Positions 34,904 to 64,000 of a DNA stretch of 64,000 bases are shown here, in pieces. Under the pieces are notes generated by a model. It saw only the letters and a program-made list of their open reading frames with translations, made no database searches and was not told the DNA's origin. The first letter of the stretch is position 1. Each line of letters opens with the position of its first letter. Source of the DNA: Planctomycetota bacterium (lineage in GTDB: Bacteria; Planctomycetota; JAFGQW01). The stretch is taken from positions 14,649-78,648 of the forward strand of contig JAFGQW010000216.1 in assembly GCA_016935485.1 (NCBI GenBank), given 5' to 3'. Both the position numbers and the translations under genes were made by a program.

Positions 34904-34912
34904 ACCGCTGCG

Positions 34913-37909: not shown

Positions 37910-37952
37910 GGGCCCGCCGGCACGCCCTCCCGCCGGCCGCTCGCGCGGGCCC

Positions 37953-42337: not shown

Positions 42338-42359
42338 TGGACACGCTCCGGCGGCCTGC

Positions 42360-44591: not shown

Positions 44592-44624
44592 TGCCCGCCC
44601 GGCTCGCTGCGCACGCCTTCACTC

Positions 44625-44820
44625 GGAAGAGGAAAGGCAACCACGAAGCCCACGAAGACACGACACGAAGACCACGAAGAGAAAGGAGCGAGGCGGCGAC
44701 AGCTGCAAGGCCATGGGGTCTGACCCCGCACCTTGCAGACCCCGACGTCCGCTCCTCCGGATGGGGCGCTCACCCGGCATGCCGCGCACCCGCCCCCTCA
44801 CCCCTTGCCCCTCCGCCCTC
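44625..44820. repeat. degenerate copy of composite repeat (CACGAAG x4 array + GGGGTCTGACCCC hairpin + degenerate ACCCGC-rich tail)
   Basis: ccacgaagcccacgaagacacgacacgaagaccacgaagag then ggggtctgaccccgcaccttgcagacccc...cacccgccccctcacccc. Lies between convergent ggt and the ABC permease. Confidence 0.65.
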
Positions 44821-48761: not shown

Positions 48762-50397
48762 ACTTGAGTCCTTCGGGGTCGAGGGTCAGGATCTCCACGT
48801 CTCGCAGCAGCTCCAGCTGGGCCGTCTTGTAGCTCACGAGCAGCCGCGAGAGTGCGCTCTGGGCGCTCACCAGCGACTCCTGCGCTTCCAGCAGATCGCG
48901 GGTGATGGCGCGCCCGGCGCGGATCTTCTCGTTGGTCTCGTCGACCTGGCTCACGGCCAGCTTCACGCGTCTCAACTGGATCTTGTAGTCCTGCTCGATC
49001 TGGCCGAGATCCCTCAGCCGCGCCCGGACTTCGCGCTTGACCGTATCCAGCAGGAGCTCGTGGTCGCGCACGGAGCGCTCGTAGGTGATGATCGCGCTGC
49101 GATAGGCGTTGCGCTGGCGGGTCCGGTCGATGGGGAGATCCCAGTCCAGCGCCGCGCCCAGGGAGACGGTCTTCCAGTCGGCCTGCCAGGCGTTGTCGTC
49201 CTTGGAGGGGATGATCACGTCGAGATGGAGATCGAGCCCCATCCGGAGCGCATCGGCGGTGATCACGACCTGGCGCTTGGCGTCCTCGACCCGGTCCTGG
49301 CTGATCTTGAGATCGAGGCGGTGCTCGAGCGCGAGCTCCACCGCCCGCACCGGGTCAAGCGCGAGCTCCGGGATGCCGCGCGCCTGGAGGTCAGCGAACT
49401 CCTGGCGCGCGAGCGCGAGCTCGGTGTCCATCGGCAGGCCGAGGGTGATCTTGAACGCGTCCAGCGCGCTCTTCAGCGATTCCCTGAGCCTCAGCAGCGT
49501 CGCCTCCGAGCTCAGCACGCTCTGCTCGTTCTGGTCCACCTGGAACTTCGGGAGCTTGCCGGCCTCGTAGAGCGCCTGCTGCAGCTCGAAGCTCACCTTC
49601 AGGTTCCTCAGGTTCGCTTCCTCGATGTCGATCCGGTCGAGCTGCTGCAGGAGATCGTAGTAGTCTGCCGTGATCACCACCACATGGCGGCGCCGGAAGC
49701 GCTCGAAGCTGCGCAGGCTGTAAACCACGTTGCGCTCGGCCTGGGTCAGGCTCTCGAGCGCGATGTCGGGGCCGAAGCCGCGGAGCAGCGGCTGGGTGAG
49801 CCCGAGCGTGAGCAGCGCGGAGCGGTCCCAGGGCACCCCGGAGGTAATCGAGCGGGACAGACTGCCGAGCAGCCGCCCCAGGATGGAGGCGCCCGTCGCC
49901 AGGGCGCGATCCAGGGTGAGGGAGGCCGACGTCGAGACGTCGGCGTCGCGGCGGTTGCCGGCGATGCCCACTGTGCCGGACAGCGTCGGGTGCCAGTCGA
50001 ACTCCCAGCGGGCGTTGCTCAGCGACAGGGCGGAGACGAACAGCGTTTCCTTCTGGTTCTGGAACTCGCGGCCGAGCAAGCCGGCCACTTCGAGGCTGCG
50101 CGCGAGGTCCAGCTGGAGCGGCACGGGCGCGGGTTCGGCGTCGGTTCTGGCCTGCGCAAGCGCCTCGAGGAGCGCCACGCGCGCCGGGTCCTCGGGAGGA
50201 GGCTCCACCGTGAAGGGGCGTGTCTCCCCGAAGACTTCTTCCTGCTTCTCATGGAGGATCGCGAGCGCTTCCTCGTCCGCGGCCTTTCGATACGACTCGG
50301 AGCTGCATCCCGCGAGCAGGACCGCGAGAACGAGCGCCATCGGAACGGGCGTTCGAAACGGGGAACGAGACACGGGTTCTGCCATCGCTTTCGCCAT
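48712..50397 (-). CDS. TolC-family outer membrane efflux protein (probable lipoprotein)
   Basis: Start at Met 20 of the track ORF. Signal ending LLAGCSS. Two OEP repeats with characteristic coiled-coil heptads. Confidence 0.85.
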   Translation of the reverse strand: MAKAMAEPVSRSPFRTPVPMALVLAVLLAGCSSESYRKAADEEALAILHEKQEEVFGETRPFTVEPPPEDPARVALLEALAQARTDAEPAPVPLQLDLARSLEVAGLLGREFQNQKETLFVSALSLSNARWEFDWHPTLSGTVGIAGNRRDADVSTSASLTLDRALATGASILGRLLGSLSRSITSGVPWDRSALLTLGLTQPLLRGFGPDIALESLTQAERNVVYSLRSFERFRRRHVVVITADYYDLLQQLDRIDIEEANLRNLKVSFELQQALYEAGKLPKFQVDQNEQSVLSSEATLLRLRESLKSALDAFKITLGLPMDTELALARQEFADLQARGIPELALDPVRAVELALEHRLDLKISQDRVEDAKRQVVITADALRMGLDLHLDVIIPSKDDNAWQADWKTVSLGAALDWDLPIDRTRQRNAYRSAIITYERSVRDHELLLDTVKREVRARLRDLGQIEQDYKIQLRRVKLAVSQVDETNEKIRAGRAITRDLLEAQESLVSAQSALSRLLVSYKTAQLELLRDVEILTLDPEGLKYDDRLDTDRTAADARG

Positions 50398-50686
50398 GTT
50401 CGACTGCGCCGCGACGCAGGCAGCCAGCACGCACTCCCCGCGGCGCGCCGGCACCCGTCGGCGTTGCGGCCGGCCGCACTCCCCGCGGCGGCGGCGCGAG
50501 TGGGAGATTGCCCGAGGCGGCGGACGGACCCGCCGCCCCTCGTGCCGGGCCCGGCCCCGAGGGGGCGCAGGCTGAACTTTCGCACATCCGTGCGCTGTTC
50601 GCCAGCCATTCGCCGGATTTGCGGCCTGCCGCGCGGCGCCTTGCGCCTGAAGCAGACGGCGGCCGGCGCGTAGCCGGATGCCACGT

Positions 50687-51370: not shown

Positions 51371-51589
51371 ATGAGCACCTCGATCACGATACGCCTCGAC
51401 CCGAGCCTGAGCCAGCTCCTGGACCGCCTCGTGGAACAGACCGGGCGAACCCGCGGTGAGATCGTCCGGGAGGCCCTGCAACGGCAGCTCGGCCTGCTCC
51501 GATTCGAACAGCTGCGCCGGACCGTGCTTCCGTTCGCGGAAGCCCGGGCGTACCTGACCGACGAGGACGTGGCCCGGGAAGTCTCGTGA
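51371..51589 (+). CDS. ribbon-helix-helix (CopG/VapB-like) antitoxin
   Basis: 72 aa: MSTSITIRLDPSLSQLLDRLVEQTGRTRGEIVREALQRQL. Beta-strand followed by a helix-turn-helix typical of RHH. Stop overlaps the downstream GTG start. Confidence 0.7.
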   Translation: MSTSITIRLDPSLSQLLDRLVEQTGRTRGEIVREALQRQLGLLRFEQLRRTVLPFAEARAYLTDEDVAREVS

Positions 51590-51999
51590 GGGTCTTTCTG
51601 GACACCAACGTGCTCGTCCGCGCCTTCGCCACCCGGGGACTGTGCGCGGACGTCATGCGACATGTGCTGCCCGAGCATGAGCTGGTCGTCGGGGAGGTTG
51701 TGCTGCGCGAGCTTCGCCGCGTGCTGCGGACGAAGATCAAGGTGCCGGCAGCCGTGGTGACCGCGATCGAGGGTGTGCTCCGCGAGCACGAGGTGGTCCC
51801 CAAGCCTCGCTCGACGCCGCCTCTGGCGCTGCGGGACGCATCCGACCGCTGGGTCCTGGCGAGCGCGATCGCCGGGCGAGCCGACGTGCTGGTCACCGGC
51901 GATCGCGACCTGCTGGAGATCGCCGCGCAGTCACCGGTACCCATCGTGGATCCTCGCGGTTTCTGGACGCTCCAGCGCCAGAGCTCTCCGGGTCGGTAG
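51586..51999 (+). CDS. PIN-domain toxin (VapC-like)
   Basis: GTG start. VFLDTNVLVRA (first acidic Asp), later acidic residues in ...WVLASAIAGRADVLVTGDRDLL. 137 aa. Confidence 0.8.
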   Translation: MRVFLDTNVLVRAFATRGLCADVMRHVLPEHELVVGEVVLRELRRVLRTKIKVPAAVVTAIEGVLREHEVVPKPRSTPPLALRDASDRWVLASAIAGRADVLVTGDRDLLEIAAQSPVPIVDPRGFWTLQRQSSPGR

Positions 52000-52199: not shown

Positions 52200-53387
52200 T
52201 CACGGCAGCTCCGTTCCCCGCGCGCGCGAGGAGACCTGGGCCGTCAGGGGAGGTGCCTCCTCCAGCACTTCCAGCAGGCGGCGGGCGCAGTAGACCCGGT
52301 TACGCCGCGCCTCGTTCGTCCGCTCCACGATTCCCGCCGACTCGAGTTGATCGAGCGCCCTCTGGGCGCTGGTGTACGCCACACCGAGCCGTTCGGCCAG
52401 CCCCGTGACGCTCCGGAATGGGTTCTCCACGAACAGATCGAGCGCCCGTTCCGGAAGCCTCGAGCGGACTCCCGCGAGGAGCTTTCGCCAGCCCGCGCAC
52501 AGCTCATCGATCCGGCGGATCCGTGCCAGAGCGTCGTCGGCCTGCGCGGCCGTGCCGGCCAGGAAGTAGGCCAGCCACTCTTCCCATTCGTCCCGTTCGG
52601 TGACGCCGAACAGGCGCGCATAGTACTCGGGCCGGGTCGCCTCGAACCAGGCGCTCAGGTAGAGCAGCGGGGAGGGAAGCACACGCCGGGCCGTGAGCAA
52701 CAGCGTGACCAGGAGTCGTCCCACCCGCCCGTTGCCGTCGAGGAACGGATGGATTGCCTCGAACTGCGCGTGGAGGAGCGCCGCGTGGACCAGTGGCGGC
52801 AGCGAATCGTCGTGGAGGTAGCCTTCCCACGCCCCGAGGCATTCCATGAGCTTCTCGGGCGGAGGCGGTACATAGGACGCTTTGGAGAGCGCGCAGCCGG
52901 GTGGCCCGATCCAGTTCTGGCTCGTGCGAAACTCTCCCGGCGTAGCGGCATCGCCGCGTACGCCCCGCATCAGCTTCTCGTGAAGCTCGCGGACGAGGCG
53001 TAGGCAAACGGGCAGGTTTCCGAGCCGCTCGACGCCGTACTCGAGGGCCACGACGTAGTTGGCGACCTCGCGCAGGTCCGCAGGGCTTCGTTCCACGGCC
53101 GTGCCGGCCTCCGCCGCCAGCAGCTCGCCCAGAGTCGCCTGGGTCCCCTCGATGCGGCTCGACAGCACCGCCTCCCTCCGGACGAACGGCCGAAGGAGGA
53201 GGTGCGGGTTCGGCAGTCGCCCGCCTTCGCCCGCCAGCCGCCCGATCGCCCGGTCTGCGCCCGACAGCGCACCGACCAGCTCGGGACCCCAGTCGAGCGG
53301 CGGCGGCAAGGGGTTCGGCACGAACGCCTCGTATCCGCCGGGACAGGCGAACTTGCGGCCATGGGGCTGGCGCAGCGGGTCCCGCAT
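52200..53387 (-). CDS. Fic family protein (AMPylation/Fido domain)
   Basis: Start at Met 12 with GGAGGGA RBS. Canonical Fic motif HPFLDGNGRVGR. C-terminal winged-helix-like region. Confidence 0.9.
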   Translation of the reverse strand: MRDPLRQPHGRKFACPGGYEAFVPNPLPPPLDWGPELVGALSGADRAIGRLAGEGGRLPNPHLLLRPFVRREAVLSSRIEGTQATLGELLAAEAGTAVERSPADLREVANYVVALEYGVERLGNLPVCLRLVRELHEKLMRGVRGDAATPGEFRTSQNWIGPPGCALSKASYVPPPPEKLMECLGAWEGYLHDDSLPPLVHAALLHAQFEAIHPFLDGNGRVGRLLVTLLLTARRVLPSPLLYLSAWFEATRPEYYARLFGVTERDEWEEWLAYFLAGTAAQADDALARIRRIDELCAGWRKLLAGVRSRLPERALDLFVENPFRSVTGLAERLGVAYTSAQRALDQLESAGIVERTNEARRNRVYCARRLLEVLEEAPPLTAQVSSRARGTELP

Positions 53388-53661
53388 GGTCGATTCCCTC
53401 CTTATCGCTGAGCGAAACAACGCGCCTCGCTATTATCACTTGGCGCCTTATCGAAAACAAGGGCCGGATCTGGCCGCGCTCCCCGCCGAACCGCCGTGAC
53501 CACCGGCCCGCCCCGGGAGACCGGACACGGATTTCGCCCCGCACCGTCGCGCCGGTCGCCTGGAGCGGCCCGTCATTCGTCCCTGCCCAGATGGCGCCGG
53601 AACGACTACGACGTCGACGCGCCGGAAGATCAGGCGGTCCGGCCGCCACGTGCGGCTCCAT

Positions 53662-56600
53662 TCACAGCTCGTGAACGACCACCCCGGCGGGTGCGGTCAG
53701 CGCCTCGGCACCCGCCCGCACGTGACGATGATGCGTGAACAATACGACCTGCGTGCGCGACGCCACGTCGGCCAAGACGCGGAGCGCCGCGGCACCGCGG
53801 TCGTCGTCGAACTGCACCAGAACGTCGTCGACGATGAAGGGCATCGGCTCGCCCCCGGCGCAGGACGCCTCGACGGCGGCAAGGCGTAGCGCGAAGAAGA
53901 GCTGATCCCGTGTTCCCTCGCTCATTCCGTACGATGGCACGCGGGTCCCCGCCGGTCGCACGCCGACGAGGATGGGACGGTCCTCCTCCACGTCGGCCTC
54001 GAGCCGCTCGAAGCTGCGGAGGGTCATCTCCCGGAAGAGAGCGCCCGCGCGGAGCAGGAGCGGCGCCTGGTTCTTGCGCCGGTAGTCGTCGATCCGGCGC
54101 GCGAGAAGCGTCGAGGCCACGCGCAAGCGAGCGTATCGTACGACGTCGTCGCGCAGCCGGGCGAGCGTCGCCTGCACCTCCTCGGCCGTCTCGCCTGCCG
54201 CGGACCGCCCCCGCAGCTGCCGGAGTTCCGCCTGTGCGCCGGCCCGCGCGTCGCGGGCTGCCGAGAGGTCCTTCTCCACCTCCGCCAGCTCCTCCCCGAT
54301 CTGGCCGAGCCGGACGTCGATCGTGTCCTTGTCCGCGCTCGTGGCCTCGGTCTCGAGATCCGCGATCGAGGCGCCGTCGCCGCCGCGGACGAGCTCCTTC
54401 TCGAGCCGCGCGAGTTCGCTCTGGCAGGCACGACGGTCGGCGTTTCGCTGCTCCGCCACGACGAGATCGCCGTCGACCCCGCAGCGCGCCTCCTCGCGGA
54501 GCGCCGACAGCGTCCGACTCGCGGCCGCGACGGCGTCCTTGTAGCCGGCGACGTCGACCCGGAGGCGCTCGAGCTGCGCGAGGGCTTGGCGTCGCCGTTC
54601 ATCCTCTTTGAGCACCGCGCCGAGACGCTGGTGGAGCCCCTCGACCCAGGCGTCCTCGGACCGGCCCTCGGTCGCTGCCATCTCACCGAGACGCTCGGCG
54701 AGAGTGCGCACGTCGGCCCGGAACGATTCGGCGTCGCGGTCGATGCCCCAGATGCGCGTCTCGTATCCCGCCGCCTCGTCGAGTGCCCGGAGGATCTTCT
54801 CGACGCCGTCGAGGGCGAACAGGGCGTCCTCGGGCAGAGGAACGTCGCCAGCGAAAAGGCCGCGAATCGCCTCGCTCCACTTGCTCTGCCACGCCTGGAC
54901 GCCCGCCTCCGCATCACGCACGGCGGCCTCCGCATCACGAATCGCCTGTTCGGCGTCGCGCGTCTGGCGCGCGTGCTCCACCCGGACACGCTCTTCCTGC
55001 TCGATGCGTTGCCGCAGCTTCTCCGCAGCGGCCAGCATCATAGGAAGGCCGCCAGCAGGTTGCAGGGTCGGCTCCAGCGCCGTGATGGCGACCCGGAGGC
55101 TCGCAATCTGCTTCTCGATCCACGCATCGAGTTGCTGCAGCTCTTGCCGCACCTCCAACGCGACCCCCGAATGCTCCCGGAGACGGCTGAAGTCCTCGCA
55201 CCATGTGCGCGCGTCGTGGATCTGCGGCGGGGTGGCGAGCACGGGCTTCCAGGCGTCGCGCCAGGCGGCTTCCAGTTCCTCGACGGCCTTGCGCCGACGC
55301 TGCGAACCCTGGTCCGCTTCCTCCATTTCCGTGGCGAGGCGCTCGCGCTCCTCCAGGTACTGCGCGAGTTCGGCGACGCGACCGGCTTCGCTTCGGAGGC
55401 GATCCGCGAGTTCGTCCGCCGCCGTCACGGCGCTTGGGTAGAGGTCCATCAGCTTGCCCTTGCCCAGGAGCTCGCGAACCTCGGCCGTCACGTCGCGGCC
55501 CTTCTCCCAGTGGTCGCGCAGCAGACCGAACGCGTCGTCGCGGCGCGTCCTGGCTGCGGCGAGATCTTCCGCGGTCGGGACGGCCTTCTTGGAGCGCAGG
55601 GTCTCGATTCTCGCCTCCAGTTCGCGCGTCCTTTTCGTGAGCCGCTGGTGCTCGGTCCTGGCCGTGCGGCTCTCGGCATCGAGTTCCTGGGCCGTGCGCT
55701 CGAAGCGCGCGATCGCGGCGCCGGTTGGCACGCAAAGCGCGTCCAGCTTGTCGATGGCCGACGCGGGGAGTTGCAGCTTCTCGATCGCGGCGGCGCGTTG
55801 CGCTGCGTTCCGCTGCGCGGCTTGAGCGAGCTTCTCACGCTCCGCTTCGGCATCGCCGCGGCGGCGCGCCTCCTCGATGGTACTGACGAGGCTCTCCGGG
55901 TCGCACTCGGGCGGAAGTGAGGCGGCCGCACGCGCGAGCGCGCTGGCTTGTTCCTGCGTGTCCTTGCGCCGGCGACGTGCCGACTCCAGCCGTTCGTCCA
56001 GCCGCTCGCGCTCGGCGGCGAGCTTCTGGATACGCGGGCGCCGGCCGACGAATACGCGGAGCGACTCGGCGGTTCCGATGTCGAGGTCCGGGCGCAGTTC
56101 GTGGAGAAGGCGTTGCGCCAACGCGCGTTGCTCGCTGTGCTGGCCGACGAGCCGGGGGCGATCGCTGAGCGCCTTGCGGTGGCTCCCGAGGTTCTTGTGG
56201 AGGTCGCTGACGGCCTGGGTCTCGGCCGCCAGCGGCGGCGTCGCCCCGAGGTTCGCGACCATCGCTTCCTGTTCTCGGAGTTCCTCCGCCGCCGGCTCGA
56301 GCTTCTGCTGTGCCGTGCGGAGCGCGGTCTCCGCATCCTGTCGCCGCTGCGGGAAGTCTGGGGCGAGCAGCACCACGTCGCCGAGATCGGCGAGACGACG
56401 ACGCATCTCTTCGCGTTCGGCCAGCAGCGGCAGGACGCGCTTGAGCCGCTCGAGGCGAGCCCTCTGTCCGGAGAGGCCCTGCTCGTGCTGTGTGAGCCGT
56501 GCGACCTGCTCGTCGGCATCGCGCGCCGCACGATCCTGGCTCACCCACGCGTCGGCCGACACGGTCGCGTCGCGCTGGGCGCTGCGGAGATCACGGAGGT

Positions 56601-57162
56601 GGCTGATCGCCTGGTTGACGGCGCGGTTGTGGCCGCGCGGCGCGAACAGCGCGGCGGCCTCGTCGTCGAGCTTCCTGCGAAGCGCCCCGAGGCGAGACAC
56701 CCCCGAGCCGGCGGCGAACAGGGTCGCGCCCAGATCTCCGTGCCCCTCGAGGATCTCGCGGCCACCCTCCAAGAGGCGTGCATGGTCGATGCCCCAGAAC
56801 ATCCGAAACTGTTCCGGCCCCACGCCGCCGAGGAACCGGTCCAGCGCGTGGTCGTCGAGCCGGGTGTCGCCCGGCCCGAGCAACGAACCCTTGAGCGCCT
56901 TGCGGCGGCAGAACTCGATCTCGTCTCCCGACGACAGGCGCAGCCGCGCCCCGACCCGGAGTTCTGCGTAGGGATGCAGGAAGGCGTCGCTCGTCTGCCC
57001 CGGGATGCCGTAGAGAACCGCGTGGAGCGCGCGGAGCGCCGAACTCTTGCCCGCCTCGTTGGGCCCGAAGATCACGTGCAGACCGTGGCGACCGCCGCGG
57101 AGGTCCAGCACGCGGTTCGTGAATGGACCGAACGCGGCGAGCCGTAGCTCGAGGATCTTCAT
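53662..57162 (-). CDS. SbcC/Rad50-like AAA ATPase with ~900-aa coiled coil
   Basis: N-terminal Walker A FGPNEAGKSS. Very long Ala/Arg/Glu-rich coiled coil. C-terminal signature/D-loop region MSEGTRDQLFFALRLA...PFIVDDVLVQFDD...VVLFTHH. Confidence 0.85.
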   Translation of the reverse strand: MKILELRLAAFGPFTNRVLDLRGGRHGLHVIFGPNEAGKSSALRALHAVLYGIPGQTSDAFLHPYAELRVGARLRLSSGDEIEFCRRKALKGSLLGPGDTRLDDHALDRFLGGVGPEQFRMFWGIDHARLLEGGREILEGHGDLGATLFAAGSGVSRLGALRRKLDDEAAALFAPRGHNRAVNQAISHLRDLRSAQRDATVSADAWVSQDRAARDADEQVARLTQHEQGLSGQRARLERLKRVLPLLAEREEMRRRLADLGDVVLLAPDFPQRRQDAETALRTAQQKLEPAAEELREQEAMVANLGATPPLAAETQAVSDLHKNLGSHRKALSDRPRLVGQHSEQRALAQRLLHELRPDLDIGTAESLRVFVGRRPRIQKLAAERERLDERLESARRRRKDTQEQASALARAAASLPPECDPESLVSTIEEARRRGDAEAEREKLAQAAQRNAAQRAAAIEKLQLPASAIDKLDALCVPTGAAIARFERTAQELDAESRTARTEHQRLTKRTRELEARIETLRSKKAVPTAEDLAAARTRRDDAFGLLRDHWEKGRDVTAEVRELLGKGKLMDLYPSAVTAADELADRLRSEAGRVAELAQYLEERERLATEMEEADQGSQRRRKAVEELEAAWRDAWKPVLATPPQIHDARTWCEDFSRLREHSGVALEVRQELQQLDAWIEKQIASLRVAITALEPTLQPAGGLPMMLAAAEKLRQRIEQEERVRVEHARQTRDAEQAIRDAEAAVRDAEAGVQAWQSKWSEAIRGLFAGDVPLPEDALFALDGVEKILRALDEAAGYETRIWGIDRDAESFRADVRTLAERLGEMAATEGRSEDAWVEGLHQRLGAVLKEDERRRQALAQLERLRVDVAGYKDAVAAASRTLSALREEARCGVDGDLVVAEQRNADRRACQSELARLEKELVRGGDGASIADLETEATSADKDTIDVRLGQIGEELAEVEKDLSAARDARAGAQAELRQLRGRSAAGETAEEVQATLARLRDDVVRYARLRVASTLLARRIDDYRRKNQAPLLLRAGALFREMTLRSFERLEADVEEDRPILVGVRPAGTRVPSYGMSEGTRDQLFFALRLAAVEASCAGGEPMPFIVDDVLVQFDDDRGAAALRVLADVASRTQVVLFTHHRHVRAGAEALTAPAGVVVHEL

Positions 57163-58424
57163 CGCGTCGCTCCCTCGCGGGCGATCCGCGCAAGCAGCAG
57201 TTCTCGGGCTTCGCAGACGAGCCGCGCCAGGATCTCCGGCGCGTGGGGATCGACCGCGTCCTCTCCGGCAAGCAACTCCGACGGCAACTTGCCACGAATG
57301 TCAGCGAGTGCGTCTCGCAGCGCCGCGGTCTCCTCCGGGCTGTCCGCGGCGGCCGCGAACTCCTGCAGAAAGCTCCCGAGCGCGTCGTCACGTGCGGCCA
57401 GCGCCGCCAGGTCGATCGGCCGATCGGTCGCAAAGCGCACCTTTTCGACCCAGACATCCGCGGAAGACACGCCGGCTGCCAGAGCGCGAATCTCCTGGAC
57501 CCAGTGGTCCGGGTTGGCGGCGATCTCGTCGTGGCAGGCGGCGGGTCCGGTCACCTCGACGCGCACGGCCACGGCGCGGCCGTCCGTGCGATCTGCGGCG
57601 GCCGTGAGCGACCGCGCGACGCGGTCGAGCACATCGTCCGTCGTCGTCGTCCCGTCCAGATCCACGCGGCAGACGGCCCAGCGCAGGACGTCGACGTGGC
57701 GTTCTTCGACTCCGGCGACGGCGCCGTTCTCGACGGTGACCAGCGTGCATCCCTTCGGACCGACCTCTCGCGCGTGCCGGCCCTGAACGTTGCCAGGGAA
57801 CACCATCCACGGGTCTCTCGACACGACCTCGCGCTGGTGGACGTGGCCGAGCGCCCAGTACTGGTAGCCCTTCTGCGCGAGGATCTGCGCCGACGTCGGT
57901 GCGTAGGCCGCGTGTCCCTCCCGTCCATCGAGGCTCGTGTGAAGCAGGCCGATGTGGAAGAGGCCTGGATCCGCGCCGGGATAGGCGGCGGCGAGATCCT
58001 CGGTCACGGCCCTCGACGCAAAGCCCTGCCCGTGGATCGCGACGCCGAACGCCTCGAGCAGACGGGTCTCGGGCTTCTTCGTCGAGAAGAAGCGCACGTT
58101 CTCGGGCGAGCGCAGGTTCTTCGTGAGCTGGCTGGCGGCGTCGTGATTTCCCGCGACGACGAAGACGCGGATGCTCGCCTCGCGGAGCTTCGCCATCTGC
58201 TCCACGAAGAACAGGCCCGTGCGGTAATCCTTCCAGTCGCCGTCGTACAGGTCGCCCGCGAGGAGCACGAACGCGACCTCCTCGTCGATCGCGAGGCCAA
58301 CGAGGCGCTCCAGGGCGCGTCGCGTCGCGCCGCGGACCGCGTCGACGGGCGCCGACTCGTAGCGATCCAGCCCGATCAGCGGGCTGTCCAGGTGGACGTC
58401 GGCAGCGTGAAGGAAGCGAAACAT
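57159..58424 (-). CDS. SbcD/Mre11-like metallophosphoesterase nuclease
   Basis: Calcineurin-like phosphoesterase motifs FLHAADVHLD, LLAGDLYD, VVAGNHD, GHVH. Stop overlaps the sbcC-like start (ATGA). Confidence 0.9.
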   Translation of the reverse strand: MFRFLHAADVHLDSPLIGLDRYESAPVDAVRGATRRALERLVGLAIDEEVAFVLLAGDLYDGDWKDYRTGLFFVEQMAKLREASIRVFVVAGNHDAASQLTKNLRSPENVRFFSTKKPETRLLEAFGVAIHGQGFASRAVTEDLAAAYPGADPGLFHIGLLHTSLDGREGHAAYAPTSAQILAQKGYQYWALGHVHQREVVSRDPWMVFPGNVQGRHAREVGPKGCTLVTVENGAVAGVEERHVDVLRWAVCRVDLDGTTTTDDVLDRVARSLTAAADRTDGRAVAVRVEVTGPAACHDEIAANPDHWVQEIRALAAGVSSADVWVEKVRFATDRPIDLAALAARDDALGSFLQEFAAAADSPEETAALRDALADIRGKLPSELLAGEDAVDPHAPEILARLVCEARELLLARIAREGATR

Positions 58425-58630: not shown

Positions 58631-59050
58631 CTACAGATAGGTCGCGCCGACATCCAAGCCCTCCTCCGGGGTGCCGTGGAAGCTCCCGTTGTGAAAAACG
58701 CACGGCGCATAGCGCTCGTTGCTGTAGGTGAAGAAGGAGAGACTCCAGGCGTCCTCGTTGCCAAAGTAGCGCAGGCGACAGAGATGAATGGGAGCTCCGC
58801 GCAGACGCTCGAGATAGTGCTGGCGAGTCTCGCGCAGCCGGCGAAGCTGCTGCTGAGTGGGTTCTGCCGGCTCGATGAATGCGTCGATGTAGCAGAGCGC
58901 GCCCCTGAACCGAATGTCGAGCCGGGAGTACCTGCCGCGGTAGTGCTTCTGCGCATGCTCTCTGATGCGCCTCTCCGTCCTTTCCCGCACCGCGGGCGGA
59001 ATCGGCCGACCACCGGAATGAGGATCATAGACCCAGGTCCGCCCACGCAT
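58631..59050 (-). CDS. hypothetical protein (139 aa)
   Basis: MRGRTWVYDPHSGGRPIPPAVRERTERRIREHAQKHYRGRYSRLDIRFRGALCYIDAFIEP...HLCRLRYFGNEDAWSLSFFTYSNERYAPCVFHNGSFHG. Non-repetitive, no family recognised. Confidence 0.45.
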   Translation of the reverse strand: MRGRTWVYDPHSGGRPIPPAVRERTERRIREHAQKHYRGRYSRLDIRFRGALCYIDAFIEPAEPTQQQLRRLRETRQHYLERLRGAPIHLCRLRYFGNEDAWSLSFFTYSNERYAPCVFHNGSFHGTPEEGLDVGATYL

Positions 59051-59205: not shown

Positions 59206-60156
59206 TCATTGTATGACGAACCGTTGCCGCAACGCGTGACGGTTGCTCGCAGGGTCAAACTCGCGCTGGACATCGTCCCGATCCTCCCTGCCGAGTCGAG
59301 TCCAGCGGGTCACGCTGCTTGGGTCGGCAGTCGTGTCGAAGCCGTTCGGAAGCGAGATGCCGATGAGGTTGGAGATCAGGTGGCGGTCATGGAAATCGTC
59401 CCAGACGAACACTTCCACGCGCAGACCGACGGCACGGACCGATGCTTGCAGGGCGTCGCGGAATCGCCGTTCGAAGTACCCGGCCTCAGCGCGCATCGGG
59501 AAGACACGGCCTGGCCCGGAGCCCTCGTAGCAGACGCGATGGATCTCGATCGCCGCTGCGGGGGTGCGTCGACCCGCAGGCGCGAGGATCTGTGCGAAGT
59601 CCCGATACCCCGGCCTGGCGGGGTCAAGATGCGGGTCGATGAACATCAAGGAGTTCGCGCAGCGCGACACGGGGGCGAGTTGCTCCAGGTACTCCGCCAC
59701 GTTGCGATGGAGGCTCACCGACGGGCTTCGCGCCGCCCACCAGCGCGCGCTTGCCAACCGGTCGATGCGGGCGACCAGCAGCTCGTCCGGGAAGGCCGCC
59801 TTGACCGGCTCCCTGACGATGACGCCGCCTGTGAACGGAATGATGGCGTGCGTGCCGAGCGCCTCCTGGCACCATGCTGAATCGTCGGGCGGAGAGCTGC
59901 CCGCGGTCGGCGGGAAAGGCACGAGTCGGTTCTGCTGGGCCAGCTTCTTGAGAAGCTCCTTGCCCCGGCGGTGCCACGGCCGGCCATCGCTCATGAACAG
60001 CCGGCGCCATTCACCCGCTCGAAGATCCCGAATGAGCCCCTCGTCCAGCATCACCTCCTTGAGATTGCGGAGCTCGGCGTCACAGGCGTCCGGGTGGGAG
60101 TACGAGGTCACATCGAAGACGTCGGGCGTGATCGCGTAGTCGGCGAGGAGCGGCAT
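59206..60156 (-). CDS. hypothetical protein (316 aa), translationally coupled to upstream ABC-ATPase; possible TOPRIM-like/nuclease partner
   Basis: Start at Met 16 with GGGAGG RBS. ATGA overlap with the stop of 60156..61943. Contains candidate acidic motifs RVCYEGSG and VFVWDDFHD ~45 aa apart. No confident family assignment. Confidence 0.55.
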   Translation of the reverse strand: MPLLADYAITPDVFDVTSYSHPDACDAELRNLKEVMLDEGLIRDLRAGEWRRLFMSDGRPWHRRGKELLKKLAQQNRLVPFPPTAGSSPPDDSAWCQEALGTHAIIPFTGGVIVREPVKAAFPDELLVARIDRLASARWWAARSPSVSLHRNVAEYLEQLAPVSRCANSLMFIDPHLDPARPGYRDFAQILAPAGRRTPAAAIEIHRVCYEGSGPGRVFPMRAEAGYFERRFRDALQASVRAVGLRVEVFVWDDFHDRHLISNLIGISLPNGFDTTADPSSVTRWTRLGREDRDDVQREFDPASNRHALRQRFVIQ

Positions 60157-61943
60157 CAAAAGACCTCCCGCAGACCTTCCTCGAAGAATCCACCGGGCCA
60201 AGCCTTGACGAGCTCGCCGCGCTCGTTCAAGGGCATCTCGCGCACGATGCTCCTTGGCCCGTCCGGCTCCACGAAGAGCACCATGACGTGCTCGGGACGC
60301 ACCGCTGGCACACCCGCCGGCAGCTTGCCGTCACTCGTCTCCCGCATGCGCCGCATGATGCGCAGGAGCAGGTGCTCGCTGTGGCTCTCGATGAGCAGCG
60401 TGTTCCCCCCTTCGCCCAGGGCCGCACCGAGGAACACGTCCCCGAGCTCGGCCTGCAGCGCGGGATGCAGGTGGATCTCGGGCTGCTCGATCGCAAGGAG
60501 TTTGCTCTTCGAGGCGTAGGCGGCGACCAGCACCGGCAACACCTGACTGACCCCGATGCCGACGTCCCGGTGACTCACGGTCGTGCCGGTGCGCTTGTCG
60601 ATAAGCACGAGGTCCTGGAGCGTCTCGGACCGCGACTCGATCATCTCCTTCGCCCATCGCTCCGAGAGCGCCTCGGTGTCCGCGGCGCCGGCAACCAGAT
60701 CCTCGATCTCCGGGACCGTGTCGTCCGGATCGTCGGGGTCGAGCTCGCCGAGGCGCTCCGCCACCTCGCCGGCCAGCGCGGTCAGGTCGGCCCCCTTGTC
60801 CCCGTGCAGTCGTCCAAGGAGCGCAGCGGCGAAATCGTGCAGCGCCTTGCCGAGCTTGGACGGCAGCTCGCCTGCGACGGCCGGCGCGGGCAGCAGGTCG
60901 CGCACTTCGAGCTCGTAGGGGGTCTTGAGGCGGCTTGCATCCCCGAGCCAGGTGTTCACCAGTCGGCGGACATTCTCGCGGGTGCGGACCACGTCCCAGG
61001 CGTAGCCTCCGCCGGCGAACCAGTTGGGATCGTGGTGCTGCGAGAACGCCAGGTGCCGGGCCGGGTAGGAGCGCAGCGGCCCCAGGTAGCGCAGCCGACG
61101 GATCTCCTCTTCGACAGCCACCCCGAGCCCACCGACCAGCTCGCGCAGCGCCTTGGGAAGGAAGAGGCGAGCCGCGCGCGCGAGGTCCTCTCGACGGCGG
61201 CCGCGGCTCACGGGCACGAACGCTTCCTCGTGTTGCCGCTCCGACTCGCCCACAGCGGGCTCCTCCTCGATGCGCGGGAAGAGACCTTCGGCACTCGCCG
61301 TGATGCCGGGGACGAGGCCGTCGAGCACCTCGCCCATCGCGGCGTAGTCCTCCGCGCGGACCTCCTGCGTCGTCGTGGCCAGCATGAGCAGGCCGCGGAG
61401 GACCTCACGGAAGACCGGGTGGGCGTGGTCGAGCCGATCCAGGCGCAGCAGGCCCCCTGCCCGCGCGCTCATGGAGAGGAGCGGCGCCCCGTCCACCTCG
61501 ATCACGAAGCGCTCTACCCGGGCGCCCCCCTCCGGGTCGCGCACTCGATCCAGGTCCCCGAAGAGCGTTCGCTGCTCACTCGTGAACCCCGCCCCGATCG
61601 CCAGCTCCACGACCACCCCACGGGCCGAGCGCAGGAGCTCCGCAACCCGGCCGGAGAGGCGCCCCGGGTCGACCTCGAACGCCAGCTCCACCTGCCGTTC
61701 ACGCTGGCGCCGGTGGACATACTGCCGGAACCCGCCGAGATCGATCGACTCGCCGCCGATCTGCGTGCGCTGCGTGTCGAGTTCGCCCGTCTCGACCGCG
61801 TGGTGCGCGAGCGCGAGCGCGTGCAGGATGCTCGACTTGCCCGCGCTGTTGGCGCCGTAGACGAGCGTGATCGGACGAAGCGGCACGCGCTGCGCGCTCG
61901 CGAAGGCCTTGAAGTTGGCGATGCGGAAGGCGGTGAGGGTCAT
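60156..61943 (-). CDS. AAA_15/AAA_21-type ABC ATPase with DUF3696-like C-terminal tail (AbiLi/AriA/PtuA-like defence ATPase)
   Basis: Start at Met 67 of the track ORF. Walker A YGANSAGKSS. ABC signature-like LLAIEQPEIHLHPALQ. H-loop ESHSEHLL. Short C-terminal tail PLNERGELVKAWPGGFFEEGL with no nuclease domain. ATGA overlap with the upstream OLD-family gene. Confidence 0.8.
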   Translation of the reverse strand: MTLTAFRIANFKAFASAQRVPLRPITLVYGANSAGKSSILHALALAHHAVETGELDTQRTQIGGESIDLGGFRQYVHRRQRERQVELAFEVDPGRLSGRVAELLRSARGVVVELAIGAGFTSEQRTLFGDLDRVRDPEGGARVERFVIEVDGAPLLSMSARAGGLLRLDRLDHAHPVFREVLRGLLMLATTTQEVRAEDYAAMGEVLDGLVPGITASAEGLFPRIEEEPAVGESERQHEEAFVPVSRGRRREDLARAARLFLPKALRELVGGLGVAVEEEIRRLRYLGPLRSYPARHLAFSQHHDPNWFAGGGYAWDVVRTRENVRRLVNTWLGDASRLKTPYELEVRDLLPAPAVAGELPSKLGKALHDFAAALLGRLHGDKGADLTALAGEVAERLGELDPDDPDDTVPEIEDLVAGAADTEALSERWAKEMIESRSETLQDLVLIDKRTGTTVSHRDVGIGVSQVLPVLVAAYASKSKLLAIEQPEIHLHPALQAELGDVFLGAALGEGGNTLLIESHSEHLLLRIMRRMRETSDGKLPAGVPAVRPEHVMVLFVEPDGPRSIVREMPLNERGELVKAWPGGFFEEGLREVF

Positions 61944-63628
61944 CGGGCCATCTCCACGGCCTTCTCGATGGGGTCGCGAAGCACGCCCGGGAGCTGCTCC
62001 GGCGTCACCCCAGCAATCCACTCGAAGGCACGGTCGATCTTCTCGCTCTCCTCGCGCGGCAGACCCAGCTCTGACTCCAAGTCCGGCTTGGCCCAGAAGA
62101 GTGCGCCCTCCTGGCAGGCAAGCTCCGTATCCCGGTTCCACCGTTCGTGCTTCCGGTTCCGGTCGGCTTCTTCGTTCTGACGCTTGTCACTCCACGACGC
62201 ATCGATGTCCCTCACGTCGTGGTCGGCCAACACGACAAACGGAATCTCCATTGCCTGGCAGACTTTCGCAAACAGCGGGATCTTTGTCTTTCCGCCGACC
62301 TCCACGACGGAGATTCCGAGCCGGTTTGGATCGTGCCCCATCTTCTGGAACACAGGCGGGAGCAGCACCTTTTCCGTGGCACCCTCCACAAGGAGAACGC
62401 TGCGTGCGAAGAAGAGCTCGTTACGCTGGGCGTCGAACTCGGTCATGAGCCGCAGCGCCTTTCGCTCGTCCTCGGCGAGGGCGGCCTTGGCGGCCTGCTT
62501 CACCGTCGTCCCCTCGACTTCGTTTCGGCGTACGAGCGCGATCGATTCGGGCCGGTCGAGCTGCACGAAGATGGGCGAGTGCGTGGTGAGGAAAACTTGG
62601 TTTCCCTTCTCGCTGAGACCCCTCAGAACCCTCGCGAAGTACCGCGCGCGATGCGGGTGGAGGAACACCTCCGGCTCTTCCAGGGCGAAAACCGCGCCCT
62701 CGCGCTTCAACTCCTCGTAGGTCCGGAACAGGGCGACGACGATGGCGCTCTGAAGCCCCGCGCCCACCTCGCCGGCCGGGCTGGTGATGCCCATCTGCTC
62801 GACGTAGAGCTGGAGCGAACGGAACGCATTCGTGGGATCGTGGCTCTCGAAGTGCAGCTCGACCTTGTGCCGTGCGGGGTCGAGCCCCATCTGCTCCACC
62901 GCGTTGGCGGCCAGCTTCTGCTCGATCTCGACGAAGCCGTCTGTGCGAAGATAGGTGTAGGCGTCCTTCACCGCAGACTCGAAGGCTTGCCGCCGCGTCA
63001 TCTGCGCGACGCTGCCGTCGGGCTTCTTGACCTCGACCTTCGTCTTGTCGTTCAGGAAGGCGGTGTTCACCTCGTTGAGGAGCCGACGCAGAACCGACCA
63101 GCGGCTGGTGGGGCCGTGGCGGTCGTACTCCCGCTGGACGCCGACGTAGATCAGCGGAAGCCGATCTCGCAACTCCCGGGTGACTCGGAAGGGCAACCAT
63201 GGCCCCCTGGGCTTCTTTCCCTTTTGAAGCGGCTCGCCGGGGTACTGCACCTGCTTGCCGTTCGGCTGGATGCAGTAGTAGTCGGTCGTGAGTGTGCCCG
63301 CCGGCTTCTGGCCCACCTTGCGCTTGTAGGCCTTGCAGCGGAGTTCGATTCCCCCGATCTCCAGCTTGCGGTTGTTGCGCCACTCCTCCATCGTTTCGTG
63401 GAAGAACACCTGAATGACGATGTCGTTGCTCGTGTCCTGGTTGTGGAAGTCCTCTTCCGAGAAGCTCCGCTCTGTCGGCCACATCTCGCCAAGCGCCAGA
63501 TTCAAGGCGCGCAGGATGTTCGACTTCCCGGAGTTGTTCTCACCGATCAGCACGCAGTACCGACCCGGCTCGAAGTCGAGCCTCTTGATCGACCGGAAGT
63601 TCTCGATGTGGATCCGCTTCATCTGCAT
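61940..63628 (-). CDS. OLD-family ATP-dependent endonuclease (N-terminal ABC ATPase + C-terminal TOPRIM), GajA-like
   Basis: Walker A IGENNSGKSN. Signature ALEEPEVFLHPH. H-loop LTTHSPIF. C-terminal TOPRIM with catalytic Glu in LLVEGATEKVLLP and DxD in VVLADHDVRD. 562 aa, the size of Gabija GajA / P2 Old. Confidence 0.85.
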   Translation of the reverse strand: MQMKRIHIENFRSIKRLDFEPGRYCVLIGENNSGKSNILRALNLALGEMWPTERSFSEEDFHNQDTSNDIVIQVFFHETMEEWRNNRKLEIGGIELRCKAYKRKVGQKPAGTLTTDYYCIQPNGKQVQYPGEPLQKGKKPRGPWLPFRVTRELRDRLPLIYVGVQREYDRHGPTSRWSVLRRLLNEVNTAFLNDKTKVEVKKPDGSVAQMTRRQAFESAVKDAYTYLRTDGFVEIEQKLAANAVEQMGLDPARHKVELHFESHDPTNAFRSLQLYVEQMGITSPAGEVGAGLQSAIVVALFRTYEELKREGAVFALEEPEVFLHPHRARYFARVLRGLSEKGNQVFLTTHSPIFVQLDRPESIALVRRNEVEGTTVKQAAKAALAEDERKALRLMTEFDAQRNELFFARSVLLVEGATEKVLLPPVFQKMGHDPNRLGISVVEVGGKTKIPLFAKVCQAMEIPFVVLADHDVRDIDASWSDKRQNEEADRNRKHERWNRDTELACQEGALFWAKPDLESELGLPREESEKIDRAFEWIAGVTPEQLPGVLRDPIEKAVEMAR

Positions 63629-63631
63629 CGC

Positions 63632-64000
63632 TCACTCGGTGGCCAACGCCTTTGCCTGCTGCTCCATCTCCTGGAGCAACTCTCTCATGTGCGCCTCGCG
63701 CCAGGAGGCGGTGAGGGCGCCGGAGAACGCCCAGCTCATCAGATTTGCCAAAAGCCGATCAAGTGCCGCCGCCGCGCGACGTCGCCTCTCTACGCACGGT
63801 TCGAGTTCCCGCAAGCGCTCTGCGAACCCCTGCTGAAGAGGGAGAGGCGGGAAGAGCGCGGGAAGGCCTCGCAGCTCAGTAGCATTGATGTTCGCCATTC
63901 CCACGGCGCGGCGGGCTTTGTTCGCCAGGAGCATCTTAATGAAAGAGCTGTTCATCAGGGCCCACACGTACTCGGGCAGAGCCTTGGCTGGATCGACGCG
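63632..64000 (-). CDS. hsdS: type I restriction-modification specificity subunit HsdS, C-terminal part (gene continues beyond window end)
   Basis: ...LPALFPPLPLQQGFAERLRELEPCVERRRRAAAALDRLLANLMSWAFSGALTASWRE... matches the conserved HsdS distal repeat (PLPPLxEQ ... FSGxLT..WR). Stop is 3 nt before the OLD-family gene start. Confidence 0.6.
   Translation of the reverse strand, partial: RVDPAKALPEYVWALMNSSFIKMLLANKARRAVGMANINATELRGLPALFPPLPLQQGFAERLRELEPCVERRRRAAAALDRLLANLMSWAFSGALTASWREAHMRELLQEMEQQAKALATE

Follow-up and report, generated by a model that had tools for sequence, protein, structure and literature searches.

Two probably separable defence modules, a Class 1 OLD nuclease and a Menshen-type ATPase–effector pair, downstream of a type I restriction–modification specificity gene

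Introduction

At one end of the window, the 64,000-nucleotide stretch of planctomycete DNA analysed here, three closely packed genes follow the specificity gene (hsdS) of a type I restriction–modification (R-M) system. They encode an OLD-family nuclease, an ABC ATPase (G2) and a protein of no named family (G3), and the original prediction put them forward as a candidate for one non-canonical three-gene defence system. Do the three belong to one system, or do they form separate modules, and what kind of protein is G3?

Results

Gene order and junctions

All four genes lie on the minus strand (Table 1). The trio directly follows hsdS, as originally proposed, and so would close a type I R-M operon; the hsdS stop precedes the OLD start by 3 nt. 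A second assembly in which the locus is longer (L167) holds the whole hsdS gene (431 aa; Pfam Methylase_S, 1.4e-30), preceded by a yhcG-like fragment; hsdS and this fragment are the R-M genes seen for this organism in the window and the second assembly together. The close relatives L010 and L071 have the gene order hsdR-hsdM-hsdS-OLD-G2-G3. The ATGA overlap between OLD and G2 was found as predicted. The G2/G3 junction had been read as ATGA too, but is actually TGATG, with a single base in common; the G3 start is called identically and independently in L167 and agrees with homologues. That these open reading frames are real genes rather than chance follows from G3 alone, which has 1135 database relatives at 60–83% identity across phyla.

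Table 1. Positions of genes, junctions, domains and motifs in the window
Feature	Position	Strand	Description or basis
hsdS 3′ end	63632..64000	-	type I R-M specificity subunit; PADLOC Specificity_I 2e-17; gene runs past window end
OLD	61940..63628	-	Class 1 OLD-family nuclease, 562 aa; ABC ATPase + TOPRIM
OLD Walker A GENNSGKS (residues 29-36)	63521..63544	-	aligned to GPNGAGKT of 6p74
OLD TOPRIM domain (residues 406-471), LLVEGATEK + LADHD	62216..62413	-	PF20469 match 1-67/67
ATGA overlap, OLD stop/G2 start	61940..61943	-	sequence
G2	60156..61943	-	NsnB-like ABC ATPase, 595 aa, without nuclease domain
G2 Walker A GANSAGKS (residues 30-37)	61833..61856	-	conserved across the 71 aligned homologues
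G2 Walker B region LLAIEQPEIHLHP (residues 482-494)	60462..60500	-	EQPE ≥95% conserved, 71 homologues
G2 C-terminal tail (residues 541-595), DUF3696-like, proposed G3 docking site	60159..60323	-	sub-threshold Pfam match
TGATG junction, G2 stop/G3 start, one base in common	60154..60158	-	sequence (TTT TGA TG)
G3	59206..60156	-	NsnC-like effector (predicted), 316 aa; no Pfam, NCBIfam or PADLOC match
G3 PIN-like domain (about residues 1-145)	59722..60156	-	apparently without conserved catalytic acid set
G3 PLD/MIT_C-like domain (about residues 146-316)	59209..59721	-	AF2 model
G3 HxR(x)4N motif, H256-D-R258-H-L-I-S-N263	59368..59391	-	H256, R258 invariant, 84 sequences, four subfamilies
G3 Asp174 in FIDPHLD motif	59635..59637	-	invariant in 84 sequences

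The upstream gene encodes a Class 1 OLD nuclease

The first of the three proteins had been described as a complete OLD ATPase–TOPRIM nuclease, and profile searches agree, with matches to Pfam AAA_15 (2.4e-30) and OLD-like_TOPRIM (PF20469, 1.2e-21) and to PADLOC Old (1.2e-60); the LLVEGATEK and VVLADHD motifs are present in its translation. Residues 3–556 align with the Class 1 OLD of Thermus scotoductus (PDB 6p74) as a full-length homologue (E=7.8e-77), whereas the Class 2 Bp OLD matches at 7e-8. The Walker A, the EE-type Walker B (ALEEPEVFLHP), the TOPRIM glutamate (LLVEG) and the DxD (DHD) all align to their 6p74 counterparts, a set in keeping with Class 1 proteins such as P2 Old. We scanned the operon and neighbouring genes of the window and L167 (the OLD neighbours being hsdS, G2, G3, a 139-aa ORF and an SbcCD-like pair) with Pfam and PADLOC and found no helicase domain, in line with the original reading of the operon. 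Class 1 OLD proteins stand alone, without a helicase partner, and membership of this class explains why none lies beside OLD. Judged by its sequence, the protein is an unexceptional, stand-alone member of Class 1: an ABC ATPase, presumably under ATP control, joined to a TOPRIM domain that is predicted to act as a two-metal DNA nuclease and would require no helicase. It differs from its class in being operonic with hsdS and G2 and in its ATGA overlap with the latter.

Gabija was considered as well, since GajA is also an OLD-family ATPase–TOPRIM protein and PADLOC GajA profiles match the window OLD at 4e-57. We rejected it because the operon holds no UvrD-like GajB and because solved GajA chains match at only about 1e-12, against E=8e-77 for the Class 1 OLD.

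G2 is an NsnB-like ATPase whose tail tracks its partner

G2 matches Pfam AAA_21 (2.7e-19) and AAA_15 (3.5e-18), and Pfam found no nuclease domain in it, as expected from the original description of an ABC-type ATPase lacking one. Its best PADLOC match is PDC-M55A (9.8e-44), followed by NsnB (2.7e-41) and HEC-03B (4.3e-36), and on these profiles G2 is an ATPase of the NsnB/HEC-03/PDC-M55 type. Across an alignment of 71 G2 homologues a GIG signature variant is conserved, and Gln487, within the conserved EQPE, occupies the catalytic-Glu position of OLD-type ABC ATPases. Published NsnB carries EN at the Walker B site and a GxG signature (PMC12065111), such that both proteins have an amide side chain where the catalytic glutamate would stand.

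The DUF3696-like tail that had been proposed for G2 scores below threshold in Pfam (18.1 bits, E=0.0033; gathering score 22). It is nevertheless backed by the PADLOC NsnB, PDC-M55A and HEC-03B profiles, which align as far as residues 589–594 (NsnB: 589), and by a paralogue in locus L012 whose C-terminal part is 42% identical to G2 residues 431–595 and which passes the DUF3696 threshold (27.6 bits). The tail tracks the type of G3 independently of the remaining G2: its identity is 56–95% in 67 loci with a type A partner and 40–47% where the partner is type B. This co-variation indicates that tail and effector form a swappable cassette, and it agrees with an AlphaFold 3 prediction in which the DUF3696 of NsnB clamps the inPIN domain of NsnC.

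G3 is predicted to join a PIN-like and a PLD-like domain

In accord with its original description as a protein of no named family, G3 gave no family match in NCBIfam (E≤1), Pfam or PADLOC (both E≤10). A nuclease fold, TOPRIM or other, had been suggested as something to look for, and the AlphaFold (AF2) model (pLDDT 93.9) instead of TOPRIM predicts a PIN-like domain followed by a PLD/MIT_C-like domain. Relative to the catalytic motif of the PLD (HKD) superfamily, HxK(x)4D(x)6GSxN, the modelled PLD fold carries a variant, HxR(x)4[N/D], in which Arg replaces Lys and GSxN is missing; G266 and G272 are conserved. PB-PLD1 proteins have a conserved D/E after β2 (PMC12065111), of which Asp174 is the G3 counterpart, and in its modelled structure G3 has the architecture published for the Menshen NsnC ‘PB-PLD1’ effectors. 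The effector is polymorphic across the family, falling into subfamilies A–D, and when 5027 PADLOC models were run against the family only NsnC (11 of 84 members) and BrxL (4 of 84) matched, both weakly.

The closest structural relative, the MIT_C domain, is a membrane-binding module for which we know of no demonstrated catalysis, and nuclease activity of G3 is therefore an assumption on our part. G3 might instead bind or hydrolyse phospholipid through its MIT_C/PLD-like domain and kill by membrane damage, or serve as a mere scaffold. The HxR in place of the canonical HxK would fit such a role, yet PLD-fold nucleases score as well against G3 (SauUSI 10.7, NucT 10.0, Nuc 9.6, Zucchini 9.3, BfiI 8.0), the fusion to a PIN-like domain suggests nucleic-acid binding, and the C-terminal domain stands where NsnC proteins have RNase or DNase domains. 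We regard a non-nuclease G3 as very improbable.

G2 and G3 form an autonomous pair

Adjacency of the two genes is obligate, G2 lying directly before G3 in 75 of 75 related loci, and the gene in front of them varies. More than ten unrelated families fill this slot, among them hsdS, an RtcR-like regulator, DUF6119 and OLD. A motif scan (QRxxxW + DGxQR) of the 84 related loci found no DUF262 (NsnA) protein within 10 kb, and representatives of the gene clusters upstream of G2 bear domains other than those of NsnA. On this gene-neighbourhood evidence G2–G3 is an autonomous pair.

OLD is probably dispensable for the pair

How, then, does OLD relate to G2–G3? Of the G3-seeded loci, 67 have 6 kb or more of sequence upstream; in these, OLD precedes G2 only in L010 and L071 (2/67), besides the window. 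The trio does recur, OLD and G2 sharing the identical ATGA coupling in 2 genome loci and no fewer than 15 from metagenomes. The proposal of a single three-gene system thus stood as regards recurrence and coupling and was not supported as regards obligate unity, given a pair that is adjacent in 75/75 loci and preceded by OLD in 2/67.

In an integrated system the Class 1 OLD would stand in for NsnA as the first, DNA-sensing component, or else be a second effector, and would signal G2 to release G3. OLD indeed occupies the position of NsnA in the gene order, and beyond the recurrent coupling the linkage outlasts sequence divergence (OLD 62–90%, G2 50–96% identity) and is kept when G3 is swapped for subfamilies B and C, so that three G3 subfamilies are spanned. 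Moreover, locus L086 has an unrelated OLD (36% identity) just downstream of G3, and in 5 further dereplicated loci a different ABC ATPase, possibly with a TOPRIM, precedes G2, its EG motif aligning to the OLD TOPRIM glutamate. Set against this, besides the rarity of the arrangement, the linkage is essentially confined to two clades of the OLD tree, one comprising about 14 loci, the other small, which fits cassette inheritance rather than repeated selection. The nearest relatives of the pair have other genes, or nothing, in the slot: DUF6119 in L007 (G2 and G3 88% and 79% identical) and Ymh plus a 215-aa gene in L001 (81% and 72%). In near relatives G2 is joined by the identical ATGA coupling even to hsdS, G2 proteins resemble one another no more closely beside OLD than where it is missing, and Class 1 OLD proteins, to which the 6p74 homology assigns this one, are by definition stand-alone. 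OLD relatives also occur without G2–G3, some of them behind hsdS. Integration of all three genes consequently seems unlikely to us and, as far as the distribution of the genes can tell, OLD is dispensable for the pair.

The coupling across clades, the ABC ATPase in the 5 loci and the OLD of L086 might nonetheless signify that OLD-type nucleases cooperate with the pair. One form this might take, to which we likewise give little credence, is an OLD–NsnB–NsnC hybrid relay in which OLD supplants the ParB–DUF262 sensor NsnA, and DNA engagement or nicking licenses the ATPase to free the PLD-type effector. Were this so, the recurrence of OLD-type ATPase–TOPRIM genes immediately before the pair, and in one case after it, in every instance with overlapping start and stop, would be functional and not accidental.

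Comparison with known systems

Menshen (NsnA-NsnB-NsnC; Millman 2022; Li et al. NAR 2025, PMC12065111) is the system that G2–G3 resembles in the NsnB match, DUF3696-type tail and active-site variants of G2, in the modelled NsnC layout of G3 (an inactive PIN-like N-domain and a nuclease-type C-domain of the PB-PLD1/MIT_C-like class, with the conserved Asp and HDR motif), in the polymorphic effector and in frequent linkage to type I R-M. In contrast to Menshen, however, NsnA (ParB-DUF262 + ParBDB) is absent from the window and the 84 related loci, OLD lies upstream of the window G2, and G3 itself falls below the PADLOC NsnC model. The published Menshen survey was seeded from DUF262 (PMC12065111), which leaves pairs without NsnA outside it. 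HEC-03 (Payne et al. 2024, bioRxiv 10.1101/2024.01.29.577857) also consists of two genes, an ABC ATPase and a PIN-fold protein, both needed for defence, and is embedded in other defence systems. Its partner is, however, described as a VapC-like PIN ribonuclease, whereas G3 has the extra PLD-like domain and a PIN-like domain apparently without a conserved acidic set; G3 matches none of the HEC-03 profiles (PADLOC, E≤10), and HEC-03 is located inside Hma systems rather than behind hsdS. For PDC-M55, a PADLOC candidate that supplies the best G2 match, none of the partner profiles matches G3. Taken as sequence and model suggest, G2–G3 is a two-gene module, widespread and as yet uncatalogued, that joins a Menshen-type ATPase to a PIN-like/PLD-like effector and lacks the usual sensor gene.

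An OLD-type ABC ATPase that retains and governs a small, separate nuclease is the scheme also of PARIS (AriA-AriB), Septu (PtuA-PtuB) and AbiL/RloA-RloB. We rejected these systems, as the original prediction had anticipated in finding no textbook pair, because the predicted PIN-like and PLD-like fold of G3 is not that of DUF4435/TOPRIM, HNH or RloB, nor is G3 a DUF4276 protein; G2 matches AriA (1e-19) and AbiLi (1.4e-10) much more weakly than it does NsnB, PDC-M55A and HEC-03B.

Discussion

Within the 67 loci, hsdS lies upstream on the same strand in 35, and 31 have full hsdRMS; in 11 loci the G2 start is within 110 nt of the hsdS stop, some hsdS and G2 genes overlapping as ATGA. The hsdRMS-G2-G3 cassette moves whole across phyla, with HsdR and HsdM mostly 69–91% identical. 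In 19 loci without R-M the pair comes after an RtcR-like CARF/sigma-54 regulator, often in tandem arrays. The explanation we favour, with somewhat better than even confidence, sees in the locus the 3′ portion of a type I R-M cassette that is horizontally mobile, with two separable accessory defence modules on board, OLD and G2–G3. The order of this cassette would be hsdR-hsdM-yhcG-hsdS-[variable slot]-G2-G3 with OLD in the variable slot, and G2–G3 would represent the Menshen-type NsnB–NsnC core without the NsnA (ParB–DUF262) sensor, analogous also to the experimentally validated two-gene HEC-03.

In the mechanism we envisage, G2 would form oligomers in the manner of ABC ATPases, with an altered Walker B (E-Q for D-E) making for slow, switch-like turnover, and its C-terminal tail would grip the PIN-like domain of G3 and thereby keep the effector inactive. 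The variable body of G2 (residues 1–440) would sense an infection cue, after which ATP binding or turnover would remodel or release G3. Since the PLD-like domain of G3 has a single HxR(x)4[D/N] half-site, it presumably pairs with that of a second copy to complete a phosphodiesterase site, and the active effector would then cleave nucleic acid and halt infection.

As for the cue, the pair might guard the type I R-M enzyme, staying silent during restriction and being set off by phage anti-restriction proteins (compare PrrC/EcoprrI and PARIS/Ocr). The proximity to hsdS and the transfer of the cassette as a whole would suit a guard, as would the greater likeness of R-M-linked G2 bodies (median identity 46%, against 30% without R-M). 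Nevertheless, the 19 loci behind the RtcR-like regulator have no R-M enzyme to guard, and R-M linkage is common to many unrelated defence genes, and we consider a guard function possible but doubtful. Such a function concerns the trigger only and is compatible with a cassette of two separable modules.

Locus organization and composition

The hsdS 3′ end, the ATPase–TOPRIM gene OLD, the ABC ATPase gene G2 and the third gene, G3, are closely spaced on the same strand, the OLD start lying 3 nt from the hsdS stop. The sequence bears out the ATGA overlap originally described between the OLD stop and the G2 start; the G2–G3 junction, also described as ATGA, instead reads TGATG, with one shared base. 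L167, which was assembled independently from the same organism, matches the window at 100% identity across 11 kb, and gene calling there returned the same three genes. L167 also extends the locus, adding a complete 431-aa Methylase_S hsdS with a yhcG-like fragment in front. In many type I restriction–modification (R–M) cassettes of our surveys a yhcG (DUF1016) nuclease-like gene lies between hsdM and hsdS.

The source of the window is a Planctomycetes metagenome-assembled genome. GC3 is 0.77–0.89 for the genes from ∼50.7 kb to the window end, compared with 0.90–0.96 in the upstream housekeeping genes (1..50500; an efflux pump and others), a difference that fits a horizontally acquired island. 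Neither tRNAs nor Rfam families were found in the window, and no integrase was seen in it. A composition break was rejected as a sign that OLD had arrived on its own: the lower G+C of this gene lies in the first and second codon positions, and at GC3 OLD (0.86) is like G2 (0.89).

Coordinates of the features in the window and in related loci (L handles)
Location	Feature	Coordinates	Strand	Product
Window	hsdS 3′ end	63632..64000	-	fragment
Window	OLD	61940..63628	-	562 aa
Window	G2	60156..61943	-	595 aa
Window	G3	59206..60156	-	316 aa
Window	ORF between G3 and the Metallophos gene	58631..59050	-	139 aa
Window	SbcCD/SbcEF-like pair, Metallophos	57159..58424	-	421 aa
Window	SbcCD/SbcEF-like pair, AAA_27	53662..57162	-	1166 aa
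Window	Fic/DOC protein	52200..53420	-	
Window	PIN_3/VapC-like toxin	51586..51999	+	
L003	ATPase before G2	6544..8289		580 aa
L069	Three tandem ATPase–partner pairs	6556..17694		
L001	HsdR	21..2765		

OLD is a predicted Class 1 nuclease

Profile searches with OLD returned AAA_15 (2.4e-30) and a complete OLD-like_TOPRIM domain (1.2e-21) from Pfam, and Old (1.2e-60) from PADLOC. Among solved structures it aligned end to end (residues 3–556, E=7.8e-77) with Thermus scotoductus OLD 6p74, the Class 1 reference; GajA chains reached only ∼1e-12 in this search. The Walker A, EE-type Walker B, TOPRIM Glu (LLVEG) and DxD (DHD) motifs are aligned and intact. On sequence grounds OLD is a putative Class 1 OLD nuclease of an ordinary kind, which adds one more member to an established class. 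The original prediction was right that no helicase lies beside OLD, but what had seemed a puzzle is expected of this class, since Class 1 OLD proteins, to our knowledge, have no helicase partner. Gabija was rejected both because the helicase is absent and because OLD is far nearer to Class 1.

G2 and G3 resemble the ATPase and effector of Menshen

In Pfam, G2 matched only AAA_21 and AAA_15. Its top PADLOC profiles were PDC-M55A (9.8e-44), NsnB (2.7e-41) and HEC-03B (4.3e-36), with AriA (1e-19) and AbiLi (1.4e-10) far weaker, and a PDB sequence search gave no match. An alignment of 71 homologues showed conservation of Walker A, a GIG variant of the signature, an IEQPE Walker B, the H-loop and the C-terminal tail; the Menshen ATPase NsnB departs from the canonical motifs in the same kind of way (GxG, EN for DE; PMC12065111). 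DUF3696 scored 18.1 bits on the G2 tail, below the Pfam threshold, and residues 431–595 are 42% identical to the C-terminal part of a paralogue that passes this threshold (27.6 bits). G2 is, to judge from these profiles and motifs, a Menshen-type (NsnB-like) ABC ATPase. In Menshen itself, NsnA is a ParB–DUF262 sensor, NsnB an ABC ATPase that ends in a DUF3696 tail, and NsnC an inactive PIN-like domain joined to a variable nuclease (PMC12065111).

DUF4435, RloB, DUF4276 and HNH, the families originally singled out as candidates for G3, were all ruled out at the profile level, G3 having no match in NCBIfam (E≤1), Pfam or PADLOC (both E≤10). A search at E≤0.001 nevertheless brought up 1135 relatives; the top 120 share 60–83% identity with G3 and belong to Planctomycetota, Nitrospirota, Binatia, Acidobacteriota and other groups. 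No relative was found in IMG/VR viral contigs, INPHARED phages or PLSDB plasmids. An AlphaFold2 model of G3 built from 38 sequences (mean pLDDT 93.9) has two domains. The C-terminal domain is PLD-like, with structural matches to PLD 2ze4 (score 11.2), MITD1 MIT_C 2ymb (11.1), SauUSI 7clg (10.7), NucT 6ehi (10.0) and Nuc 1bys (9.6). The N-terminal domain is PIN-like, matching the SMG5 PIN domain 2hwy (8.3) and Nmd4, Utp24 and VapC (5.4–7.6).

Across 84 G3 sequences of subfamilies A–D, P11, R77, W95, D174, H256 and R258 are invariant and E204, H206, G266, G272 and D274 nearly so. The resulting motif, HxR(x)4[N/D], corresponds to an HKD-like half-site in which Arg replaces Lys. The PIN-like domain conserves no acidic set and is therefore probably non-catalytic; an active PIN nuclease is unlikely, D12, E98 and D132 being kept in subfamily A only and replaced in B–D. 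When the 84 members were compared with 5027 PADLOC models, 11 of them matched NsnC (E=0.0024 at best), 4 matched BrxL (E=7e-4 at best) and no other family appeared, and many BrxL proteins end in the same MIT_C-like domain (PMC12065111). The modelled folds argue for G3 as an NsnC-type effector whose family is unannotated. The fold of this partner also led us to reject PARIS, AbiL and Septu, so that G2 and G3 are not the textbook pair of that kind which the original prediction had allowed for.

The G2–G3 pair occurs without NsnA

A G3-seeded survey of 80 genome loci, combined with earlier look-ups, gave 84 loci after dereplication. G2 lay directly upstream of G3 in all 75 loci with at least 2 kb of upstream sequence. 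Of 67 loci, 35 had a same-strand hsdS upstream and 31 the full hsdRMS; in 11 loci no gene intervened between hsdS and G2, whose start was no more than 110 nt from the hsdS stop. A motif scan found no DUF262-motif protein within 10 kb in any of the 84 loci. The pair would work like NsnB–NsnC, but membership of Menshen fails for want of NsnA; it would likewise work like HEC-03, a validated two-gene ABC ATPase–PIN system, but its partner family differs. The Menshen census was seeded from DUF262 (PMC12065111), which places NsnA-less pairs outside its scope.

The gene before G2 varied. It was an RtcR-like CARF/sigma-54 activator (PADLOC 5.8e-189) in 19 loci, hsdS itself in 15, a 580-aa second ABC ATPase in 5 dereplicated loci, a pPIWI-nuclease-like protein in 4, a Class 1 OLD in 3 (the window, L010 and L071), DUF6119 in 3 and AAA_13 in 2; DUF3800, HerA, SIR2 and a 215-aa gene after Ymh also occurred. 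Several of these genes, hsdS included, share an ATGA overlap with the G2 start. The G2–G3 pairs nearest to that of the window lack OLD and carry instead DUF6119 (L007, 88%/79% identity) or Ymh and the 215-aa gene (L001, 81%/72%). Cassettes of hsdRMS–G2–G3 lacking OLD are also present in two cultured strains, Massilia timonae CCUG 45783 (L081) and Peristeroidobacter agariperforans KA5-B (L068). Between hsdS and G2, conserved flanks enclose a short slot whose gene differs from genome to genome, in the manner of a compact hotspot of variable defence cargo.

Individual cargo genes include DUF6119 (L007, L015, L027), pP_pnuc_1-like (L023, L047), DUF3800 (L040), 215-aa PDC-M14B-like (L001, L008) and AAA_13 (L006, L038) genes. 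The 580-aa ATPase (L003, L019, L029, L034, L082) has an ATGA overlap with G2; its ILYLEGSTD aligns by BLAST with LLVEGATE of OLD, PADLOC returned AriAB (3e-15) and Pfam no TOPRIM domain, and the protein is possibly a further OLD-superfamily nuclease. RtcR-linked pairs (L069, L012 and 17 other loci), in which the activator stands in place of R–M, come from Vicinamibacterales and Latescibacterota, and L069 carries three tandem pairs of an NsnB-like ATPase and a ∼320-aa partner, the partners being of different subfamilies. HsdR of L001, which belongs to this mobile type I R–M family, has a precomputed Peptidase_S24 match at its N-terminus.

We also surveyed 80 metagenome loci seeded from OLD and placed them on a neighbour-joining tree. 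Every member of one clade of ∼14 loci, the window included, has the order hsdS–OLD–G2, as does a second small clade; all other OLD relatives (≤66% identity) stand alone in other islands. Confinement of the linkage to these clades points to an inherited cassette rather than repeated assembly. Some OLD relatives precede, in place of G2, a gene beginning LIYQTEDGRTRIQVRLE (L104, L107, L098, L099, L105), which is presumably RhuM-like; in L104 and L107 the OLD relative sits behind hsdS, and this gene lies directly behind hsdS–OLD.

The G2 tail co-varies with the effector

In loci with partner type A (67 loci), the G2 tail (residues 541–595) is 56–95% identical to that of the window, even where the body (1–440) falls to 15–30%. 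With partner type B the tail is only 40–47% identical and the rest of G2 66–87%. The last 55 residues of G2 thus track the effector type and not the rest of the protein, which implies a recombination breakpoint inside the 3′ end of G2. Some members of the OLD-linked clade have, in the position of G3, a replacement that is 27% identical to it and alike in architecture, with the effector motif reading HNR in subfamily B and HDR in subfamily C. Such co-variation is the pattern expected if the G2 tail contacts G3; in Menshen, AlphaFold 3 predicted contact between the NsnB DUF3696 and NsnC PIN-like domains in 23 of 24 systems.

Proposed mechanism

Our starting points are the observed identities, folds, obligate G2–G3 pairing, absence of NsnA, slot variability and tail–effector co-variation; the mechanism itself is an analogy, drawn from Menshen models and from PARIS, Septu and HEC-03, the last a two-gene system that has been validated. 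G2 would oligomerize as an ABC ATPase, its tails clamping the PIN-like domain of G3, and Gln487 in place of the catalytic Glu suggests a slow, switch-like ATPase. An infection signal would be read by the divergent G2 body, and G3 released or remodelled. With one HxR half-site per PLD-like domain, two copies probably come together, in the manner of Nuc, NucT and BfiI, to form the active site, which would cut nucleic acid. A guard-type trigger, for example anti-restriction proteins, is an attractive possibility given the strong linkage of G2–G3 to type I R–M; the RtcR-linked loci show that R–M is not required for the pair. OLD would work alongside as a separate TOPRIM DNA nuclease under ATP control, with hsdRMS as the first line. 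Its substituting for NsnA in a hybrid relay seems to us improbable; G2 next to OLD is indistinguishable from G2 without it.

A specialist would expect both this architecture and an unremarkable OLD. The useful and testable elements are the NsnA-less core, how large it is and that annotators overlook it, the tail–effector cassette and the hsdS–G2 slot. If our reading is right, NsnB–NsnC works without NsnA, the pair being the minimal Menshen-type unit and NsnA an add-on sensor. Spread over diverse environmental phyla, the G3 family numbers more than 1000 members (E≤0.001), yet Pfam, NCBIfam and PADLOC do not see it, no PADLOC 2.0 model detecting G3, and current defence annotators would therefore miss these systems. 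Swapping of tail and effector together would offer a natural experiment locating the ATPase–effector contact, and the slot a compact variable site for mining further defence genes.

Other genes of the island

The ORF next to G3 is also called in L167 and had no match in Pfam, NCBIfam or PADLOC. The two genes of the SbcCD/SbcEF-like pair overlap by 4 nt, and in PADLOC they matched LmuB alone, and weakly (2.7e-11); an SbcCD-like pair also lies a few kb downstream of G2–G3 in L003, L019 and L056 and may be a recurrent island module. The Fic/DOC protein has a C-terminal winged-helix domain and matches PADLOC SoFic (2e-114), and the PIN_3/VapC-like toxin gene (2.5e-12) marks the inner edge of the island.
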